DNA of 40,000 bases from Candidatus Altimarinota bacterium (GTDB lineage: Bacteria; Patescibacteriota; Gracilibacteria; BD1-5; UBA6164): assembly GCA_943356435.1 (NCBI GenBank), contig CALREY010000006.1:23084-63083 (forward strand). The letters are read 5' to 3'. The notes under the pieces were generated by a model, which was not told the DNA's origin, did no database searches, and saw only the letters and a list, made by a program, of their open reading frames with translations. Both the position numbers and the translations under genes were made by a program. Positions 4,277 through 34,826 of this stretch are shown one piece after another (positions within the stretch are counted from its first letter, which is position 1; every line of letters starts with the position of its first letter).

Positions 4277-5014
4277 TTAATTAATTAATTCATCATAATT
4301 CACCCAAACTAGCGCATCCAAATGTAATTCTGGTATATTCAATTTTTTTGATAAATCAAAATAAAATTTTTTTATTAGTTGGTCTTGTCCCCCTCCTTTA
4401 TAGGGAGGGGTTAGGGGTGGGGTGTCTTTATATTTTTGGAACAAATTATCCAATCTAGAATCTATAGGTATAGAAATATTCTCTGGAAAATATATCAATT
4501 TGTTAAATACATTTCTAGCACCATAACTAAACATCTTTATAGCAAAAACTACAGTTTTTGCATCTTTTTTTTGTTTCATAGTTAGAGCTAATTTATCTCT
4601 TAATTCTTCCATATTATTATAATAATACTCAGTCTTAGTCACAAATTCTTCTAGAAATGGTCTCAATTTCTCCAATCTATTTATCTTTGTATCTATAAAT
4701 CTTTTATTATTCTTTGATTGTTTTATAAAATCTCATAAGGATTTAGTAATGTACTCTACTAATCCCCCCTCCTTAATAAGGAGGGGGTTAGGGGGTGGTC
4801 CGAAGTAAGCACCAAACTCTTCCCAATAATCTTCTCATTTACCTGATAACTGATAACAGATTATAGAATTAGCCAAAATAAGTCATAAATATTTATCCTT
4901 TTCGGCTAAATTATCTCACATTTTTTTCAAAGCTTTATATTGTCTATCAGATTCTTCTATTTTAATAGAATCTTCTATAGAATATTTTTTTAATTTTTCA
5001 TATAATTCTTGCAT
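4277..5014 (-). CDS. AGOG-type N-glycosylase/DNA lyase (archaeal-type 8-oxoguanine glycosylase family)
   Basis: 246 codons; extends track ORF 4277..4675 upstream through TGA codons. Motifs CYQLSGKGEDYWEEFG, NKRFIDTKINRLEK, DAKTVVFAIKMF, IPIDSR, ELHLDALVW. Carries two GC-rich element insertions. Confidence 0.6.
4387..4425 (-). repeat. GC-rich hairpin + G-tract mini-element, copy A (inside AGOG CDS, encodes PPLTPPYKGGG)
   Basis: Plus strand reads GTCCCCCTCCTTTATAGGGAGGGGTTAGGGGTGGGGTGT. Four G-runs at 4403-4422. Confidence 0.75.
4764..4799 (-). repeat. GC-rich hairpin + G-tract mini-element, copy B (inside AGOG CDS, other frame, encodes PPPNPLLIKEGG)
   Basis: Perfect 10-bp stem CCCCCTCCTT/AAGGAGGGGG (4765-4774 / 4778-4787), followed by TTAGGGGGTGG. 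Confidence 0.8.
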
Positions 5015-5300: not shown

Positions 5301-7232
5301 CTATTCTTCTATTTCATTCCCTATTTTTTTATACACTTCATAATAATATTCTACAAATTTTCTCAAATCAGGATTTAATGGTAAATAATAGCCATGTTTT
5401 TCTATTGTATAATCACTTAAAAATACTCATGCATCTATCTTTTCTAGATAGATATTTATTAATTTTTTATAATGTGATAAATATAATTCTTTTAATTTAT
5501 TAAATGTGTCAGCATTATAATACATCTCTACTTTGTATATTCACATTACTTCAGTTTCATCTGCTAGTGGACTTTCATTTATCTGAAATTTCAAAATTCA
5601 TGATTCAAACAATATATCTAGATGAATCAATGCTTCAGTATAATATGGTACTAACTCTGTGATTGTTCTATATTTTAATAAATTAACTGACCTATATAAA
5701 TGTGAACTAATAATATCAATATTTAATTGATCTAGTCCGCCTCCTTGATAAGGATGGGTTAGGGGTGGTAATAATAAATACATAAGTAATCATCATGTAG
5801 TAGCTTTGAATTCTTCTATTCTTTTGTATACTCCAGTTTTTTTATTCATAATAGACTGAGTATCTGAATCCAGCCACAAACTATGTCAAAATTCATGACC
5901 AATAGTTAAAATATCATAAATCTTATAAAATATTTCATCATTTCAAAATATAGTATTTCTATAATTTTTCAATAAATTTTGTTCAAAAATTATTGAATCG
6001 ATTTTCATAACAGGACTTTTTTTCTTATTTTCTAGAACCATTTCTGGAAATCAAAATATTTTTTTACCATACATTTCGCTTATTACTTCATCATTAGGTA
6101 CTACTTGAGCTGAACATAATCAAGTTAATTCTGATGAATAGTATAATACAGGAGAAGATAAATACAATTGTACTCTTTTAATATTATCTAGTGAAAATTT
6201 ATATGATGAAGGATAATTTTCTCTACCTATTTCATCATAAAACTTCTCATACATTTCTAGAATTCCATTTTCAACATCTGATTCAAAAACAGTATTTAGT
6301 ATTCTCAAATCCCATTCTGGTGCTACTGCTTTTCTATATTTATCTTCATAAAATTCTAGTGGATGTACTATTTGAAATGGAGTTTTAATACTCATCCATG
6401 CTTCATCTACCTTTGACCATTTATCTACCAATTTATTTGTAACAGTTTCTAAAAATGCTTCTTTTATTGCATTTAAATAATTTATATAATAATCTTTTGA
6501 ATCATATATTTCATCTGTTAGATTAGATAAATTTGAAATAAATGAATCTAGTTCTGATACTATATCATTTATTTCATTCGTAAATACATCATAGTAAGAT
6601 TTTGAAATATATTCTCAATTTTCTAGTACTAATACACTATATGACCTATCAGATATTTCAGCATTATGTCATAAATCAAATAAATTATTTTCATTCAAAT
6701 AATTCATTATTGCTATACTATCATTATCAAATTTTTTTTCTAAATCTCTATTTATTCAATTAACAATATGATTTTTCCATGGAATAAATAATTCATTCAT
6801 AGCCAATCATACATTTGCAACTCACTTGAATATTTCTAAATAAAAATCTGTTAATAGAGCTTTTTCTTGAATAACTGAAATAATTACAGCTTGTACTTCA
6901 CTATGAAAATCACATACAAATTTATATGCTAAATCTAATATTCTGATTTTTTCTTTTTCTAATTCATCTCATATATATGGAGGACTAATTGGCGGATTTG
7001 TATCCATATACAAAATCAATGGAACTTCTTTTAACTGAGCAATTCTAGCAAATGCAGCATATCTAGTCTCCTCATTTTTATCTAATCAAATATAGTCCAA
7101 AAAATCATCTAACATAACTCTATGACCGCCTTCTTCTTTTACTCATTTTAATAAATCATTTATGTTGGATTGTAGACTTTTATACAATTCTAATACATCT
7201 TTAATATTTTGTTCTAGTTCCTGTCTATTCAT
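5301..7232 (-). CDS. HExxH zinc metallopeptidase (family uncertain, possibly M3/PepF-like)
   Basis: 644 codons, joining track ORFs 5598..5783 and 6120..6431 in one frame. Motif TIGHEFGHSLW, followed about 25 aa later by IEEFKATT. Contains GC-rich element copy C. Confidence 0.55.
5736..5769 (-). repeat. GC-rich mini-element, copy C (degenerate; inside metallopeptidase CDS, encodes PPLTHPYQGGG)
   Basis: TCCGCCTCCTTGATAAGGATGGGTTAGGGGTGGT, with mismatches in the stem. Same frame as copy A. Confidence 0.7.
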
Positions 7233-11860: not shown

Positions 11861-11937
11861 GGGTGTATAGCTCAGTTGGTTAGAGCGCACGACTGATAAT
11901 CGTGAGGTCGATGGTTCAACTCCATCTATACCCACCA
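11861..11937 (+). tRNA. tRNA-Ile (anticodon GAU), CCA encoded
   Basis: Acceptor GGGTGTA/TATACCC, anticodon stem CACGA/TCGTG, loop CTGATAA, T-arm GATGG/CCATC. Confidence 0.85.
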
Positions 11938-12045: not shown

Positions 12046-12067
12046 CAACTCCATCTATACCCACCAT
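12046..12067 (+). repeat. 22-nt exact direct repeat of the tRNA-Ile 3' end (copy of 11917-11938)
   Basis: CAACTCCATCTATACCCACCAT occurs at 11917-11938 and again at 12046-12067, separated by 107 bp. Confidence 0.8.
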
Positions 12068-12836: not shown

Positions 12837-13104
12837 ACTACATACTATTTAAAAATTATATGGATTATAATAATAAAATATCAATCATTTACAATCTATT
12901 TTTATAATTTTGTAAGTATTTATTGAAATAATTTAAATCTAGTAAACAAAAAATAAATGTAAACAACTAAATTTTGATATAAGTACAATAATTATTTATT
13001 ATTATATTTGAATTTAATTCTAAATAAATATAATAAATTGATAAATACTATGAATTATAAAATATAAAAATTTTGATAATAACTTATTTTGAAATTTTAA
13101 AATT

Positions 13105-14799
13105 ATGAACAAACTATTATTGTGAATAATCGGTGCATTTTCAATTATTATAATACTTTATATTTCTTACAATATATTTTTTAATAGTAATAAAGGTACT
13201 ACTTTTGAAGGTTATGATTCTAAGATGATAGAACAATGTAAAAGTATGCCAAATATGAATTGATGTAAAGAATATACTAAATCAATAATATGATGAGCTA
13301 ATGATTCAAAATATTATAATCCAATAGAATTAAACCAAGATGACGTTAAAAATTCAAACAAAGTAAGTGTTATTGAATTAAAAGATTGAGATGTTTATGA
13401 AATGGTTGTAACTAAAGTAATAAAGGAAATTTGAAATTCTAAAGTAGTAATGTTTGCTTATAATGGAAGTGTTCCATGACCTATTATTAAAGTAAAAAAA
13501 GGGAGTGAAATAACAATAAAATTTACAAACAAAGTAAAAGAAATAGACACTACTCTTCATTCTCATTGAATAAGAATTGAAAATAAATATGATGGTGTTC
13601 CAAAAAGTATGAATTGAAATCAAAAAGCAATTAAATATTGAGATACTTTTGTTTATAAAGTAAAATTTAAAGATGAATGAATTTATTGGTATCATCCACA
13701 TGTAAGAGAAGATTTACAAATGGAACTTTGATTGTATTGAAATTATTTAGTTAATCCTGAAACAGATGAATATTGGTCTAAAGTAAATACAGAAGAAACT
13801 ATTATTTTAGATGATATATTAATAGAAAATGATAAAATAGCACCTATAGCAAATAGTTTTTCTAATTATCTATTTTCATGAAGATATTGAAATACAATGT
13901 TAATAAATTGAGATGCTAATTATTCATTAAATGTTAAAAAATGAGAAACAGTAAGATTGTATTTTACAAATTCATCAAATACTAGAGTATATAATGTAAA
14001 TATCCCTTGAGTAAAAATGAAACTAGTATGATCAGATATGAGTAAATATGAAAACGAAACATATGTAAATAATTTTATAATTTCTCCAGCAGAAAGATAC
14101 GTAGTAGAATTATATTTTGAAAAACCTTGAAATTACAAAATACAAAATGTAACTCCATCAAAAACTTATGTACTATGAAATATAAATGTTTCAAATGCAA
14201 TTGACTTAAAAAATTATAAAAAAGAATTTGATACATTGAGAAAAAATAAAGATATAATAAGTGATATAGATAATTATAGAGAGTATTTTGATAAACCAGT
14301 TGATAAGAATTTAATTTTAGCAATATCACAAAAATGAATAAAATGATGAATGTATTCTATGTGAGATATGTTAGAATGAAATAAAGATTTTGTTATGGAT
14401 TGAATAGAATATGAAGATGCTAATATAAAATTAAATAAAATGTCTAATTCTAAAAATCTAGTTTGGAAGATAATTGATAAAGATACTCTAAATGAAAATA
14501 TGGATATAAATTGGAATTTTAAAGTATGAGATAAAGTTAAAGTAAAAATATTTAATGATAGTAATACTTTATACCACATACAACATCCTATACATTTTCA
14601 TTGACAAAGATTTTTAGTAATAAATAGAAATTGAGTTAGACAAACCAATTTAGTTTGGAAAGACACAGTTTTAGTAAAAGAATGAGAATCAGTTGATATA
14701 TTAATAGATGTAACTAATCCTGGTGATTGGATGGCTCATTGTCATATTGCAGAACATTTAACATGATGAATGATGATGAATTTTAATGTAAAAAAATAA
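13105..14799 (+). CDS. multicopper oxidase (three-cupredoxin laccase/CueO-like), paralogue 1
   Basis: 564 codons. N-terminal hydrophobic anchor. Copper-site motifs TLHSHG, WYHPH, HPIHFHG, WMAHCHIAEH. Very many in-frame TGA at Gly positions. Confidence 0.8.
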
Positions 14800-22316: not shown

Positions 22317-23981
22317 TTATTCTTTAACACTAAAATGCATCATCATACCTGAAAATAAATGCTCAGATATATGACAGTGAGCCATCCATTCTCAAGGATT
22401 ACTCATATCTGCTAATATATCAATATTTTCTCATGTTTTTAATAATACTGTATCCTTCCAAACTAAATTTTCTTGTTTCTTTCAATCTCTTGATACAACT
22501 AAAAATCTTTGTCAATGTAGATGAAATGGATGTTGCATAGGATGAGCCGCATCCTCTTTTTTATTTTCTATATGGATTTTTACTATATCTCATTTTTTGA
22601 ATTGCCAGTTTATATCCATATTTTCTTTTTTTGTATCTGTATCTATTATTTTCCACTCAAATTCTTGAGAAGTAGATGTCTGATTCATCATAGGCATACT
22701 ATCTTCCCATTCAATATTATCTTGAGATGTATTTCACATCATCATTCATCAATGAGACATATTTCACATTCAATCTTCTCAAATTCATCATTTTTTTCAC
22801 AATCTTCATAATTCTAAACTCAAATTTTTATCAGCTTTTTTATCAAAATAAGGTTTATATTTTTCTATATCTTGTGTAGTATCAGCATTTACTTTCAATG
22901 TCTCAAAATCAGTTTTATAAGAAGTTTGGATTTGTTCCTTTGAAACTATTACTTTTCAAATTATATAATTATCATTTGGAGTACTATTTTGTATTTCAAA
23001 ACTACCAGATTCAGGAGCAAATAAATCTACTATATATCTTTCTCATGGAGCTATTGTTATATTATCTACATAACTTTCTCTCTCATATTTTCAATTATCA
23101 GATCATACTAATTTCATTTTTATTCAAGGGATTTTGAAATTAAATACTCTAGTATTTGCTACATCAGTTAAATATACTCTAACTACTTCTCATTTTTTCA
23201 AATTCAATTTATAGTCAGAATCTCAATTTACAAACATAGTATTTCAAAATCTTCACATTAATACATAATTTGTAAAATCTTTATAAAAAGGTTTTAATTT
23301 ATTCCCATTTAAATCTATATCATCTAGAATTATATTATTTTCACTATTAACTTTTGAATAATAGTTTTCATCACTCGGTTCTACTATATAATTACCATAT
23401 AATCATAATTCTTGTTGAATATCTTCTCTCAAATGTGGATGATACCAATAAATTCATACATCAGGGAAACTAAGTTCATAAGTGAAACTATCTCATTCTT
23501 TTATTGGATCTTGTTTTCACATCATATCTTTCACAACTCAATCAAACATATCACTAAGTCTCAATCAATGAGAATGTAGCGTAGTTTCTAAATCTGCTAC
23601 TTTATTTACAATTGTTACTTTTGCTTTTGTTCAAACTTTAGCTTTTATAATTGGACCAGGAATACTTGAATTATAAGCAAGCATTTCAACTTGTTTTCAT
23701 CAAATATTTTTATTTATTTTTGTGATTTCTATTGTATAATTATCCCCTTCTTTCAAATTCACTATTTCTTGTTTTTTTTCATCACTAGCCAATTGTCATT
23801 TTCAATAAACTAATTCTTTTGTTGAAATATTTTTATCAACTCCATGATTCATCATTCCAGAATTCATATTATTATTATTCATTCACATATGCATATAATT
23901 TATACTATATGGATAAATTATATATCCTATTAGTAAAGTTAATAGTACTACTAAAAGTAATATTATTGTATTTTTTTTCAT
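22317..23981 (-). CDS. multicopper oxidase, paralogue 2, with Met/His/Gly-rich insert
   Basis: 555 codons. Motifs TLHSHG, WYHPH, HPFHLHG, WMAHCHISEH. Insert GMGNMSHGGMMMGN..SMPMM. Confidence 0.8.
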
Positions 23982-24006
23982 ATTTTAATTTCTTATTATT
24001 ATTTAA

Positions 24007-27000
24007 CTACTTAACTATCTTAAAATCTTTTTTTGATACAAAATGCATCATATCATAACTAGTAAATGTCTTCTTTAACTGCTTTATTACTATTACATTA
24101 TTTCAAAAGAAATCTGTTAATTTATCTCATATATTTTTTATAAGTCACAATTTAAACATCATATTTGTATCAGTAAATCATACATACATATTTATAAATC
24201 AATTATTAGTAAATGAATTTGTATCAATCTGATTTACAAAATACTTTGGTATATTAGTATTGTCCATTAAATAAAATGTTCTAATTGATAAATTATCAGG
24301 TGTTGGGAAAAATACTAAACTTGTACTATCTCATTCAACTATATCATAATTACTAGAATTAAAAATATGTACTTCATCCAAAAATGTATCAGTCTTAGCT
24401 AAAATACCTACAACTTTCACTTTTTCTAATCAAAAGAAATTTATTAATTCATCTCCTACTCATTTTATTAGTCATAATTCTATCATCATCTTTGCTTCCA
24501 TATATCATATTACTACTTCATTGCTTTTTATAGAATTTATTCAAGTTTTTAATTTAAAACTTTGTGGAATTTTATCAGTGAATAAAAATATTTTTGGAGC
24601 ACTAGTTTCTTCTATATTTATCTTATTTTTTGAATGAACTATAAAATCTGTAATATCTGTTAATACTTTTTGATTATTAGTAGTATAAATTTTTTCGAAA
24701 TTATATGATTGATTTATAGAAGCAAATGAAATAAATATAGATAAAAATAATAAAACTAAAAAAATCAAACTAACAGTTGAAAAATATTTATGTTTTACAC
24801 TTATTCTAAGTAATAATGAATTAACAACAACTGAAACACTACTCATTGCCATAGCTAATCATGCAAACTCAGGCTTCAAATATAATCAATAACTTATAAA
24901 TACTCCTGCAGCAATAGGTATTCATAAACTGTTATAAAATAGTGAGAAAAATAGATTTTGTTTTATTTTAGACACAGTTTGTTTACTCAGATTTATAGCT
25001 TTTACTACATCATTTAAATCATTTTTCATCAAAACTATATCAGAGCTCTCAAGTGCCACATCATTTCCAGATCACATAGCAATAGCTAAATCACTATTCA
25101 TCATAGCAATAGAATCATTTATTCCATCTCATACCATAGCTACTTTATGATTCATTTTTTGTATTTGTTTTATAATATTTCCCTTTTCTTGTGGAAGTAC
25201 TTCACTAAATACATTTTCTAATTTTATTCACACTTTGTTTGCTATGAATTCTGCTGAATATTTATTGTCTCATGAAATCATAAATACCTCTATTCAGATA
25301 TTTTTCAATATAGAAATAGCTTCAATAGAAGTATCTTTTACTTGGTCACTTACTGAAATTAATGCTAATATTTCATTATTATTTGCTAAAAATAATACTG
25401 TTTTTCATTCTCATACTAGTTTTTCATAATTATCTAAAACTGCTTTATTTAATGATAAATTATAATTATTAAGTAGTGATTTATTTCATATTATATATTC
25501 TATATCTCATATTTTTCAAACTACTCATTTTCAATTAATTATTTTAAACTCGCTTGTTTTGATTAACTCAATATTTTTAGATTTTGAATATTCTACAATA
25601 GATTTAGAAATAGGATGATTTGAATTATTTTCAAGTGAATAAATTATCTCTAATATATCATTTTCTGAGTAAGAATTATTTATAATAATCAAGTCTTGAA
25701 ATGAAGGATTTCAATAAGTAATTGTACCTGTTTTATCCAATGCTACTGCTGTAATATAATTTGCTTTTTCTAGTGCAGAACCTCATTTTATCAGTATTCA
25801 TGATTTAGCTCATATACCAGTTCATACTATAACAGCTGTAGGAGTTGCCAATCCTAGTGCACAAGGACAAGCTATAACTATCACACTACAAGCTAAAAGT
25901 ATTGAATTCTCGAAACTTGAACTAAGTAAAAAATACCAAACTAAAAATGTTAATATAGACAATATGATAACAATCGGTACAAAAACTCTAGATATTCTAT
26001 CTGCAAAAGATTCTATATCAGATTTCGATAAACTAGCTTCTTCTAGTAGATTTATTATTTGATAAAGCATTGTTCACATTCATACTTGAGTAGATATTAT
26101 TTCAAAACTAGTATGTTGGTTCAATGTACCTGTTAAAACTTTATCTCATGTATTTTTATCTATTGGTAGACTTTCTCCTGTAAGCATAGATTCATCTACT
26201 GATGCATATCAAGATATTATTTTTCAGTCTACAGGTATTTTATCTCATGGTTTTACTAGTATAGTATCTCATACTTTTATTGATTCTATATCTTGCTCTA
26301 TAAACTTATCTCCTACTTTTACAAATGCTGTTTTTGGAGCTAAAGACATCAATTTACTAATAGCTTCACTAGTTTTTGATTTAGCTCTTGTTTCTAGATA
26401 TTTTCAGAAACATACAAAAGTAATTAATAGTGCAGATACTTCGAAATAAATTCACTCTATTTTCATTCCATTTAAACCTAAAATACTTCAAGTATCTAAG
26501 TAAAAAATTATAAAAGAATATAAGCTATAAACAAATGCTACAGTTGTTCATATTGCAATTAAACTATACATATTAGCAGTTTTTTGTCTAAGAGCGGCAT
26601 AAAATCATCTATAAAATTCCAATCATAAACTAAATTGTAAAATAGTTGAAATTAAAAATGATACAATTGCCATATATGGCATAATAACTTCATTGTAATC
26701 TAATCATTTTACGAAATCATATACCATAAATATGATTAATGGAATAGATAATATAAATCAAAAAATACTTTTATACAACCAATCTTTTGATTCATCTATT
26801 ACTTTTGTATCGCTAGTTGAAGCTTTGTATCATGATTGTTCAACTATTTTAATAATTTCACTTTCTGTTATCTTTGTTTCATCATATTCAACCAAGGCTT
26901 TATTATTTCAAAAATTCACTTTTGATGTGATAATATTTGGATTATCAGATAGATTTGATTCTATTATTTTAGAACAACTTGAACAGTGCATTCAAGAAAT

Positions 27001-27018
27001 ATTTAATTTTGTTTTCAT
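24007..27018 (-). CDS. copA: copper-translocating P1B-type ATPase with in-frame ~265-aa C-terminal extension
   Basis: 1004 codons. Motifs: HMA GMHCSSC, TGES, VIACPCALGLATP, DKTGT, GDGIND, AMSSVSVVVNSLLL. In frame with track ORFs 24541..24852 and 25822..26070. No TAA/TAG until 24007-24009. Confidence 0.85.
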
Positions 27019-27023
27019 ATATT

Positions 27024-28340
27024 TTATTTAACAATTATAACTCATTGTCACATTCACATAGTTCCACATACTACATCATATTCTCACTGCTTAGCATTAT
27101 TTATATCATAAGTAATAGCTTGTCATTTCAATATATATGAAACTTTTGAGCTAAGTTTTGGGATTGTTTGAGTAGACATACATCACTTACCATTTTCACT
27201 TGGTAGTACTGTGATTTTATAATTTTTTCATTTTTCTAATACCAATTCTTTTGGATCCATTTGATATCAATCAAATCATACAGTTATTTCTTCAACATCA
27301 TTGTTAATAGTTTCAGTATTAGTAGACTCTTTATTTTGAGTAACTTGATTTGTATTATTACTTGTACTTGAAAAATTTAATAAGTTATAAGAATTTGAAA
27401 CAGTAATAAGTCAGAAAAATATTAGTACTGCTGCAATAATTTTATTAAAAATAGGAAATTTCTTTCATTCAAAATAACTAGACCCTAATCACAATGAAAA
27501 CAATACAGGAAAAGTACCAATTACAAAAAATAGCATAATTAATCCACCTCAAATAAAACTTCAGCTACTTACAGCTAATAGTTGCATAGCCTGTGTAAAT
27601 CAACATGGTAGAAAAAATGTCAATACTCAAGCTATTGGAGCATATTCTGGTTTTCATAATTTTTCTATTTTAGAAGCAAAACTTTTTGGCATATGAATTC
27701 AAAATCTAGATATAGATGGTAGTATTCATAATATATTTAATCATATGTATAACAAAATTATTCACACGAAAAATGTCAGTATAGATCAAATAGAAAAACT
27801 TAAACTAAATAATTTTCAAGTAAGTCAAAGAAGTCAACCTAGTAAGAAAAATCATATAATTCTTCACAATTGAAATCATAACTGTACTTTAATATGTCAG
27901 TTAGTGGTATTTGTACTATCTATATATTTTGAAAATCATATAATTAATCATCCTGTAACTGCTAAACAAGTAGAAATAGATGCTATCAATCATACTAACA
28001 ATGCTCATGAATAACTCAAAGTAGAAGTATCTGGTATATATTTAATTGAATCAAATAATCAAGTAAACATAAATAATATAATGACTATTAATAATGCTAT
28101 GATATTTGTAATCATATTATTGTTTCAAGTACTATTTATTTGATTAACTTTATATCAATTTTTTTCTATTATTTTTATCACTTTTTCATAATCAGATTCC
28201 CTTTCATAATCTATTTCCATTATTCACTTTTTGTAACTTATCATAAGTAATTGTACTCAAGTAAGTTTTTTTAATTCTTTTTCTAGAATCATTTCACAAC
28301 TTATACAATGCATTCACTTAATGTTTATTATTTTTTTCAT
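27024..28340 (-). CDS. HMA domain + TauE/SafE- or DsbD-like permease + C-terminal cupredoxin-like domain protein
   Basis: 439 codons. N-terminal GMHCISCE. About six helices, including FFLPCGFTQAM. C-terminal roughly 90 aa with C..VVCGTMGMGQG. Its stop lies 5 nt before the copA start. Confidence 0.6.
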
Positions 28341-28365
28341 TTTAATTTGATTATGTTTTAAGTTT

Positions 28366-28495
28366 TTCATAACTCTATCCTGAATCCTTTCTCTTACTTA
28401 AGAGAAAGGGGCTACAAAATGAGCATCCCTCTCTTAAATAAGAGAGGAATTTATGCACGAAGGGAGGTATCCTGTGGACAAGGGTGAGTTATGAA
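28366..28495. other. GC-rich multi-hairpin module bounded by 10-bp inverted repeats (structured RNA or MITE-like insert)
   Basis: TTCATAACTC at 28366-28375 is the rc of GAGTTATGAA at 28486-28495. Internal hairpins: CCTTTCTCTT/AAGAGAAAGG (28386-28409) and CCTCTCTT/AAGAGAGG (28428-28447). Confidence 0.5.
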
Positions 28496-33985: not shown

Positions 33986-34023
33986 CACCACCCCCCTACC
34001 CCCTCCTTGGTAAGGAGGGGGAG
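33986..34023 (+). repeat. GC-rich mini-element, copy D (intergenic, opposite genomic orientation)
   Basis: CACCACCCCCCTA, then the perfect stem CCCCCTCCTT/AAGGAGGGGG (33999-34008 / 34012-34021). Confidence 0.8.
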
Positions 34024-34049: not shown

Positions 34050-34826
34050 ATGAGTAAATATTACAATTCAAAATTCTATAACAAAGCAATAGAAGTAGCT
34101 AATATATTCTGAGAAATAATAGTGATAGTAAGTGATAACAAAGATAGAGAAATTATTTATACATGGTATGATGTAGAAGAAAAGAACACTGAAAGCAATT
34201 ATATAAATAAATGCTTACTCGGGTGATTTATAAAAAAAATACCAAAAAAAGTCCTCATAATATGATTTGGTTGATGAGCATTTGCTAAATATCTAGAAGA
34301 CCATATAGAAAATATAAATATAGACTGAATAGATATAGATGAAACTATGTTTGAAATAGCAAAAAATGAATTGAATGTAAAAACAAACAATTTCTACATT
34401 ATGGATGCTATAGATGCACTAGATAAAATAATTGAACAAGATAAAAAATATGATTTAATACTAATAGATGTATATTGAAGTGATTGAGAAATCCCTAATT
34501 ATTTCTGAGAAAAAAACTTTTTCGAAAAAATAAAATATGTGTTATTAGATGATGGAGTTTTATCTATAAATTTAGCTGATTATGATTTAAATAACTTAGA
34601 AAAAACTCAAAAATATAATAATATTCACAATAATTTGATAAATATTTTTTGAGAATACTACTCTCACATATTAGCAGGAATAAATGATAGATGAAATGTA
34701 TCTGGTATTTATAATCTAGATAAAAATTATAATTCTTGAGATTTTGATAATAATTATTTAGATAAAGTGAAATCTGGAGAAATAATATTTGATGAAAAAA
34801 TCATAAGAAATACAATTAGTGAATAA
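34050..34826 (+). CDS. class I SAM-dependent methyltransferase / spermidine-synthase-like protein
   Basis: 258 codons. Motifs VLIIGFGGGAFAKYL, DGIDIDE, DLILIDVYG. Confidence 0.5.

Follow-up and report, generated by a model that had tools for sequence, protein, structure and literature searches.

The 40-kb window analysed here (40,000 nt of contig CALREY010000006.1, from a Candidatus Altimarinota bacterium of the Gracilibacteria) has a G+C content of about 23%, and its reading frames are open only when TGA is read as a sense codon. It encodes an AGOG-type N-glycosylase/DNA lyase and a DUF7897 protein, and both genes carry copies of a short element, 36–39 nt in length, in which a GC-rich hairpin is joined to a G-rich arm. 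The SGKG motif of AGOG has a TGA codon at the invariant second Gly position, as aligned with the standard-code relative P0118 and with solved AGOG chains, so that UGA is to be read as Gly (code 25). Under this table the AGOG open reading frame (ORF) stays open across both of its element copies, and the gene was called at the same coordinates on the source contig. We propose that the element is probably a variant of the BoxC/PIT/TM_ECO intrastrand-triplex repeat of Escherichia coli, gained in-frame lineage by lineage and constrained as DNA.

Searching the window with the pattern CCTCCTTNNNAAGGAGG at up to two mismatches gave four matches against 0.00 expected, and a scan for triplex motifs likewise gave four hits, compared with 0.0 in 100 Markov simulations. 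The window holds four intact or near-intact copies and one decayed relic, three to four of these five lying in-frame in the two host genes and one being intergenic (Table 1). An earlier description made from the letters alone (hereafter the sequence-only reading) had seen a dispersed mini-element in the two AGOG copies, and both scans, together with the further copies 3 and 4 and the relic, confirm it as real; the open frame through both copies, their peptides and the lack of stops in two of the three sense frames were also correctly described. Its statement that the two copies are read in different frames holds for the hairpin part, which is shifted by one additional C, and not for the arms, which begin in the same frame (CCA CCC). 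Copy 4 is oriented opposite to copies 1–3, in agreement with the + strand gene that follows it. The relic is the fourth member of a repeat family in the window (D2, 61% identity), and its hairpin and G/C runs have been eroded toward A/T. As a separate observation, copies 1 and 3, both of family D2, have about 13 further bases in common past the purine stem on the sense-3′ side (GAC[A/T]AGA[C/T]CAA[C/T]TAA), which are partly shared by the copy in the related locus L122; this subfamily may be about 50 nt long.

Table 1. Genes, element copies and other features of the 40-kb window (Y, pyrimidine block; R, purine block; aa, amino acids)
Feature	Position	Strand	Blocks or parts	Product, peptide or remark
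AGOG-type N-glycosylase/DNA lyase, host gene 1	4277..5014	−		245 aa with UGA = Gly; Pfam PF09171, E=8e-55
DUF7897 protein, host gene 2	5301..7232	−		643 aa; Pfam PF25448, E=1e-176
Copy 1, in AGOG gene	4387..4425	motif on + (G-rich)	Y CCCCTCC 4390–4396; loop 4397–4403; R GGAGGGG 4404–4410; TTA 4411–4413; reverse-Hoogsteen arm GGGGTGG 4414–4420	− strand peptide PPLTPPYKGGG
Copy 2, in AGOG gene	4764..4799	motif on +	Y CCCCCTCCTT 4765–4774; loop AAT 4775–4777; R AAGGAGGGGG 4778–4787; TTA 4788–4790; arm GGGGGTGGT 4791–4799	− strand peptide PPPNPLLIKEGG
Copy 3, partly degraded, in DUF7897 gene	5735..5770	motif on +	Y CCGCCTCCTT 5737–5746; loop GAT; R AAGGATGGG 5750–5758; TTA 5759–5761; arm GGGGTGGT 5762–5769	peptide PPLTHPYQGGG
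Probable decayed relic, in DUF7897 gene	~6951–6998	−	NPPISPPYIGDELEKE; CCGCCAATTAGTCCTCCATATATATGAGATGAA	peptide PPISPPYIGDE
Copy 4, intergenic	33987..34022	G-rich motif on −	on + strand: arm ACCACCCCCC 33987–33996; TA; Y CCCCCTCCTT 33999–34008; loop GGT; R AAGGAGGGGG 34012–34021	ends 28 nt upstream of ATG at 34050
Gene following copy 4	34050..34823	+		
Further common bases, copy 1	4375–4389			peptide GQDQLI
Further common bases, copy 3	5723–5736			peptide GLDQLN
13-aa insert, in DUF7897 gene	5535–5573	−		SPLADETEVMGIY
tRNA-Ile(GAT), last 21 nt	11917–11937		CAACTCCATCTATACCCACCA	
Exact repeat of tRNA-Ile end	12047–12067			130 nt downstream
Multicopper-oxidase paralogue	13045–14796	+		
Multicopper-oxidase paralogue	22320–23984	−		
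ORF, candidate copper ATPase	24010–27027			
ORF, candidate copper ATPase	27027–28397			

Both AGOG copies are insertions of about 12 codons in inter-helix loops, as the sequence-only reading had supposed. AGOG orthologues free of inserts have 224–225 aa versus 245 aa in the window, both sites are alignment gaps against the solved AGOG structures 7ou3 and 1xg7, and in an AlphaFold model (mean pLDDT 88.7, the predicted local distance difference test score; made for the code-4 database copy P0001 of the protein) both inserts appear as inter-helix coils with the lowest local confidence. We call the position of copy 2 site 1 and that of copy 1 site 2. The relative L122, whose AGOG is 70% identical to that of the window, has no element at site 1 and the same element as the window at site 2, identical to copy 1 at 33/33 nt; L123 (71%) has the same element at site 1 and a different one at site 2; and L126 and L127 (61% and 67%) have the same element at site 1 and none at site 2, so that copy 2 has orthologous copies in L123, L126 and L127 and is missing in L122. 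The DUF7897 gene of the window holds, besides copy 3 and the relic, another lineage-specific insert of 13 aa, and the syntenic DUF7897 genes of L123 and L126 are free of all three; the relatives each carry inserts of their own in DUF7897 or YaaD. With this pattern of presence and absence in syntenic orthologues, parsimony favours lineage-specific gains. The 13-aa insert itself has no recognisable hairpin or arm. Compared across the window, L122, L123 and L126–L129, the AGOG loop at site 2 hosts no fewer than four different stem variants.

That the inserts are ancestral Pro/Gly loops, or the outcome of compositional convergence or assembly artefacts, is scarcely credible. The short length of the element speaks for such a reading and nothing else does, and it is refuted by the polymorphic syntenic orthologues, the presence/absence polymorphism being seen across independent ENA, JGI and NCBI assemblies, by the intergenic copy, by the gaps in the structures, and by the synonymous-site identity and the identity with E. 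coli copies described below. Homologous residues in distant orthologues, or a lack of insertion polymorphism, had been named in advance as grounds for giving up the insertion view; neither was found, the orthologues being polymorphic.

The G-rich strand reads 5′-CCCC(C)TCCTT, a 3-nt loop (3–7 nt among the window copies), AAGGAGGGG(G), a second loop TTA or TA, and GGGG(G)TGG(T); the pyrimidine and purine blocks pair into a hairpin of 7–10 bp. As a mirror of the purine block, the third block sets G against G–C pairs and T (A in other genomes) against A–T pairs; its relation to the pyrimidine half of the stem is likewise one of mirror symmetry, and not that of a complement or a direct repeat. An antiparallel reverse-Hoogsteen third strand obeys this same rule, G facing G–C and A or T facing A–T. 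The three-block layout was found in the window copies, intact in copies 1, 2 and 4 and degraded in copy 3. Watson–Crick pairs are formed at 7/7, 10/10 and 10/10 positions in copies 1, 2 and 4, and the antiparallel mirror block matches at 7/7, 9/10 and 9/10. For copy 2 (G strand, 5′–3′, CCCCCTCCTTAATAAGGAGGGGGTTAGGGGGTGGT), the 10-bp hairpin has a computed energy of −11.2 kcal/mol as DNA, from a folding tool that models hairpins only. Judged from its letters, the window element has the layout by which class II purine-motif intrastrand triplexes are defined in the literature, and is predicted to be one.

The mirror rule holds well beyond the window. All hits in the scanned loci numbered 209 under the mirror rule versus 57 under a non-mirrored control, and among hairpins fitting one rule only, the mirrored arrangement outnumbered the direct one by 97 to 2 in the main family and by 28 to 1 for 16 other purine blocks. 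Stem and arm also covary, a shift in the position of A in the stem being accompanied by a shift of A/T in the arm, as in phage SuMu (stem CCCCCTCTTT with arm TCTCCCCC), in the AGOG gene of L129 (stem CCCTTCCC with arm CCCATCCC) and in the YaaD gene of L123 (stem CTCCCCC with arm CCCCCTC); the AGOG element of L128, given below, is a further case of the mirror rule. All window copies use the T-type arm; because this arm fits only the DNA purine motif, and not an RNA or pyrimidine-motif triplex, we infer a constraint on single-stranded DNA, on the G-rich strand.

The G-rich strand could alternatively be selected for, or act through, a G-quadruplex (G4) fold, and the sequence-only reading had called it a canonical G4 motif. 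This is true of copy 1, whose four runs of at least three G make it the sole canonical G4 motif in the 40 kb of 23%-GC DNA, and for sequences of this type the G4 is recognised as one of the folds in competition (PMC4666352; PMC8044849). Copies 2, 3 and 4, however, fail the rule of four G≥3 runs spaced by 1–7 nt. A G4 has no need for the C-rich complementary block and leaves the tracking of the stem by the arm unexplained, and for TM_ECO the 18 imino signals in nuclear magnetic resonance (NMR) spectra indicated a triplex, not a G4 (PMC4666352). A G4 element is thus a very improbable account of the family.

Nor is it probable that the element works as RNA, with an mRNA hairpin sequestering the Shine–Dalgarno (SD)-like AAGGAGG by the anti-SD-like CCTCCTT and so tuning translation or mRNA stability, although this deserves slightly more credit than the G4. 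The stem is stable, the C-rich strand is always sense in Gracilibacteria, and copy 4 and the copy at L064:3192 lie about 25–28 nt upstream of start codons. Most copies, however, lie deep within ORFs, and those in front of genes, copy 4 included, stand too far from the start codon to serve as an SD sequence; the SD/anti-SD pairing noted in the sequence-only reading follows from the stem sequence itself. A hairpin alone leaves the mirrored arm unexplained, the T-type arm (CCACCCC in the RNA sense) is unable to build a triplex of the pyrimidine motif as RNA, and RNA does not form triplexes of the purine motif (PMC4666352). PIT elements have shown neither promoter nor terminator activity (PMC4666352), both orientations occur in genes outside Gracilibacteria, and no Rfam family was matched at either the gathering or a relaxed threshold.

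Conservation between orthologous copies points in the same direction as the architecture. Third-codon positions within the element are identical at 43/47 sites (11/11, 11/12, 12/12 and 9/12 in four orthologue pairs) versus fractions of 0.62–0.66 in the rest of AGOG, and the few changes in orthologous copies fall in the loop and linker, while copy 3 and the relic are decaying toward A+T. Because stems and arms are kept at synonymous sites against the A+T pressure and the changes lie in loops, we infer that the constraint acts at the level of DNA. In about 135 kb of Gracilibacteria/Peribacteria DNA, the C-rich strand is the sense strand in 12/12 genic copies and in about six unambiguous intergenic ones.

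On the one hand, such conservation against A+T pressure could mean that the element is a structural DNA device beneficial to its host, for example a pause site for replication or transcription or a hotspot of hypermutation or recombination, and is retained for that function. Different variants have repeatedly arrived at the same two AGOG loops, TM_ECO loci are linked with local genomic variability (PMC4666352), and three hosts of genic copies in other genomes of the candidate phyla radiation (CPR) serve DNA repair or replication (LigA, UvrD and MgsA). On the other hand, copy 3 and the relic decay, orthologues free of copies are common, no function was found in E. coli (PMC4666352), and permissive loops suffice to explain the occupancy of hotspots. 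We regard a host-beneficial role as unlikely, though it is the strongest of the competing accounts.

The same kind of element is widespread. A genome scan with one genome per species, whose query was the hairpin plus an upstream ACCC only, gave at least 120 loci at G+C contents of 25–73%, most of them with the arm ACC(A/T)CCCC, which the query had not specified, and after it a short linker that varies; the scan sets lower bounds for the number of copies in each genome and for the range of taxa. The loci listed come from Gracilibacteria, other Patescibacteria, Ignavibacteria, Nitrospirota, Bacteroidota, Gammaproteobacteria, Acidobacteriota, Armatimonadota, Nanoarchaeia and others, and among the matches listed the same 36-mer, unspecified arm included, occurs in dozens of phyla and on viral contigs. 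The linker beside the stem varies among them (TTA, TA, TTG, CAG, CCG). In other phyla most copies are intergenic, 36/57 lying outside long ORFs versus 38% of random positions.

In-frame copies with Pfam-confirmed hosts were nevertheless found in MnmA of Uhrbacteria, LigA of Nomurabacteria (three repeat-like inserts by eye, of which the one matching the scanned pattern was scored), MgsA of Magasanikbacteria, TsaE of Giovannonibacteria, a Cu-ATPase of Nanoarchaeia and UvrD of a gammaproteobacterial metagenome-assembled genome (MAG). DNA-repair and replication genes are frequent among the in-frame hosts, with AGOG repeatedly and LigA, UvrD and MgsA at loci L097, L075 and L083. These repair-gene hosts recall a remark by Di Nocera on intragenic repetitive extragenic palindromic (REP) sequences, and bias and permissive loops are both candidate causes. 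A further observation concerns a Thiomargarita MAG, where L065:4620–5030 is a head-to-tail tandem array of at least eight element units, mostly at a 41-nt period, versus the dispersed single copies elsewhere.

The link with E. coli is direct. In the AGOG gene of L128, the loop that holds copy 1 in the window carries CCCTCTCCC TTT GGGAGAGGG TTA GGGTGAGGG, identical at 33/33 nt to E. coli BoxC copies, and copies identical to this element are present in 5409/5426 complete E. coli genomes at a median of 16 places. The consensus of the window variant, by contrast, found no full match in the 5,426 E. coli genomes. Viruses carry it: the window variant lies on 28 IMG/VR viral stretches, and related variants are found in phage SuMu and a microvirus, while a search of plasmids gave partial hairpin matches only. 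In the IMG/VR contigs L138, L139, L142, L145 and L155, mirrored arms stand on both sides of the hairpin, so that there is a class II motif on each strand and the whole makes a longer interrupted palindrome; this two-armed viral form may be ancestral or dimer-like.

Several points weigh against the proposal of a lineage-gained, DNA-constrained intrastrand-triplex repeat. The probability attached to the third-codon conservation, P ~3e-5, comes from four orthologue pairs that are not phylogenetically independent, and recent acquisition or gene conversion could also have produced such conservation. Orientation is confounded with the direction of replication, most contig genes being co-oriented, and copy 4 alone separates the two; outside Gracilibacteria the orientation rule fails, with 6 versus 7 genic copies. 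The count of at least 120 loci gives abundance and taxonomic spread as lower bounds only. Triplex formation in vitro is known for TM_ECO alone, and dimethyl sulfate footprinting detected no triplex of TM_ECO in vivo, nor was a function found (PMC4666352). No consistent target-site duplication was recognised by eye at the four window copies, the flanks of the orthologues being too diverged to define insertion boundaries, and no empty-site allele was resolved; because of these two results, active transposition is a candidate only. At the ugpB–ugpA locus of E. coli, the BoxC pair is replaced by a REP, with no clean empty site. This spacer is also of interest in itself, since it holds an inverted pair of BoxC type A and type B in 318/5,426 E. 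coli genomes (L158, CFSAN018748) and is shorter in K-12 (L159) and other listed genomes, K-12 having an apparent classical REP by eye; from the sequences compared, two different structured repeats appear to share this inter-cistronic niche.

How a repeat of the BoxC/PIT/TM_ECO kind could persist in coding DNA can be outlined. Genic copies would survive because inserts keep to multiples of three nucleotides, stops are missing from two of the sense frames and surface loops tolerate the Pro/Gly-rich peptide, and selection or a process of copy maintenance would act on the DNA rather than on the peptide. The G-rich strand would be kept as the transcription template, probably since the harm is greater when a G-rich strand prone to triplex or G4 folding is the non-template one. 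Spread would most likely be non-autonomous and dependent on the structure of single-stranded DNA, and phages would be one means of transfer between hosts.

More tentatively, and with odds that we put clearly below even, BoxC/PIT-type repeats might all belong to one pan-prokaryotic, horizontally exchanged family of single-stranded DNA elements defined by structure, which enters CPR/DPANN genes in-frame, notably DNA-repair genes, and stays intact at synonymous sites and in fixed orientation to transcription. If this were true, it would be the first natural evidence of in vivo selection on an intrastrand DNA triplex, and would reveal an origin, not recognised before, for Pro/Gly loop insertions in proteins. 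BoxC/PIT elements form very stable triplexes in vitro, yet they have neither a known function nor a known way of spreading, and evidence that they fold in cells is lacking. The reading frames of a 23%-GC genome offer a natural experiment, as neutral decay is fast and easily read there, and the synonymous conservation of stem and arm with drifting loops, the covariation and the T-type arm together point to a constraint on single-stranded DNA structure. The element thereby provides comparative evidence on whether intrastrand triplexes matter in cells. A short non-B-DNA repeat can be a recurrent source of loop insertions in CPR/DPANN proteins, and in annotation and structure prediction a repeat origin should be recognised for peptides of the kind of PPLTPPYKGGG, PPPNPLLxKEGG and PHPNPLPKGEG.

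Two other features of the window were noted. The last 21 nt of a tRNA-Ile(GAT) gene recur exactly, and between the two copies lies a 109-nt insert whose tail is GC-rich; on sequence grounds, this looks like the att-type scar of an element that integrated at, and was mostly lost from, the 3′ end of the tRNA gene. Two multicopper-oxidase paralogues, inverted and about 8 kb apart, have a DNA identity of ~71–76%, and the translations of the two ORFs beside them carry N-terminal CxxC motifs of the heavy-metal-binding type; these ORFs may encode copper ATPases, and the whole region may serve copper resistance and have undergone an inverted duplication.

Among known systems, the sequence-only reading had compared the element with Rickettsia palindromic elements (RPEs), a comparison that stands for the in-frame behaviour and fails for length and sequence. 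Like RPEs (Ogata et al. 2000) and intragenic REPs, it is a small palindromic repeat found in-frame in unrelated genes, at structurally permissive sites, where it adds a short peptide, and it is frequent in genes of DNA replication and repair; in-frame intragenic RPEs and GTAG/CGTC REPs have both been reported, with DNA-repair genes as frequent hosts (Di Nocera et al. 2013, PMC3733652; PMC10969869). It differs from RPEs, which are 100–150 bp long (PMC10969869), in its 36–39 nt, in a sequence unrelated by inspection of the published descriptions, and in its occurrence in different phyla. Mobilisation as a REP through a RAYT transposase, or membership in the RPE families, could account for the documented in-frame habit and for the inverted element pairs seen in other genomes (L003, L056 and E. 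coli). But no Y1 or other transposase was found among the Pfam-annotated genes called around the locus on the contig segment, and the mirrored third block is foreign to REPs. The reading as a GTAG-type REP was rejected, there being no conserved terminal, unpaired GTAG or CGTC tag and the linker being variable. REP or RPE membership is accordingly about as improbable as the G4 reading.

G4- and triplex-capable repeats have also been described in Methanomicrobiaceae and Deinococcus, for which hairpin, antiparallel triplex and G4 are competing folds (PMC8044849). In these as in the window element, G-runs adjoin a complementary C-tract; they differ in that the archaeal repeats have their C-tract on the opposite flank of the G-runs and in being described as non-coding and lineage-restricted.

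BoxC/PIT elements have been known since the 1990s. The element is not confined to code-25 bacteria, the same 36-mer occurring, among the matches listed, in dozens of phyla and on viral contigs, nor is it of the undescribed kind suggested by the sequence-only reading, its architecture being that of BoxC/PIT/TM_ECO. The kind of element is already known; what is new is this variant and its in-frame, oriented and conserved behaviour in a UGA = Gly CPR genome. Relative to the searchable literature, the novelty lies in the in-frame colonisation of Gracilibacteria and other CPR/DPANN genomes, the lineage-specific gain, the synonymous-site conservation and the orientation. Searches for repeats of Gracilibacteria or CPR and for intragenic triplex motifs gave nothing relevant in a limited library, where absence is no proof, and searches with sequence strings of the element gave unrelated papers only.

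BoxC, PIT element and TM_ECO are successive names for one E. coli repeat (Hoyne et al. 2000; Holder et al. 2015, PMC4666352). Its pattern is CCCTCNCCC N3–6 GGGNGAGGG N3 GGGNGAGGG, with TTA as the second loop in type A, and it forms a triplex by circular dichroism and NMR, melting at 70–82 °C (PMC4666352). The strict pattern was found in the L128 AGOG copy and not in the window copies, whose stems are CCCC(C)TCCTT/AAGGAGGGG(G) as against CCCTCNCCC/GGGNGAGGG. The literature searched places such motifs in intergenic DNA. In E. coli MG1655 this holds for 23/23 copies, which favour neither strand, and Holder et al. found them unlinked to phages or plasmids (PMC4666352); the window, by contrast, belongs to a 23%-GC, UGA = Gly Gracilibacterium, has three to four of five copies in-frame in genes and all of them sense-oriented (C-rich strand sense in ~18/18 Gracilibacteria copies), and its variant is carried by viruses. 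What the two share is the architecture, with a C-rich stem, a loop of 3–6 nt, a G-rich stem, a 3-nt loop (TTA in type A) and a mirroring G/T arm all on one strand within ~35–37 nt, as well as stems conserved above loops, dispersed multiple copies, occasional inverted pairs and the lack of an associated transposase.

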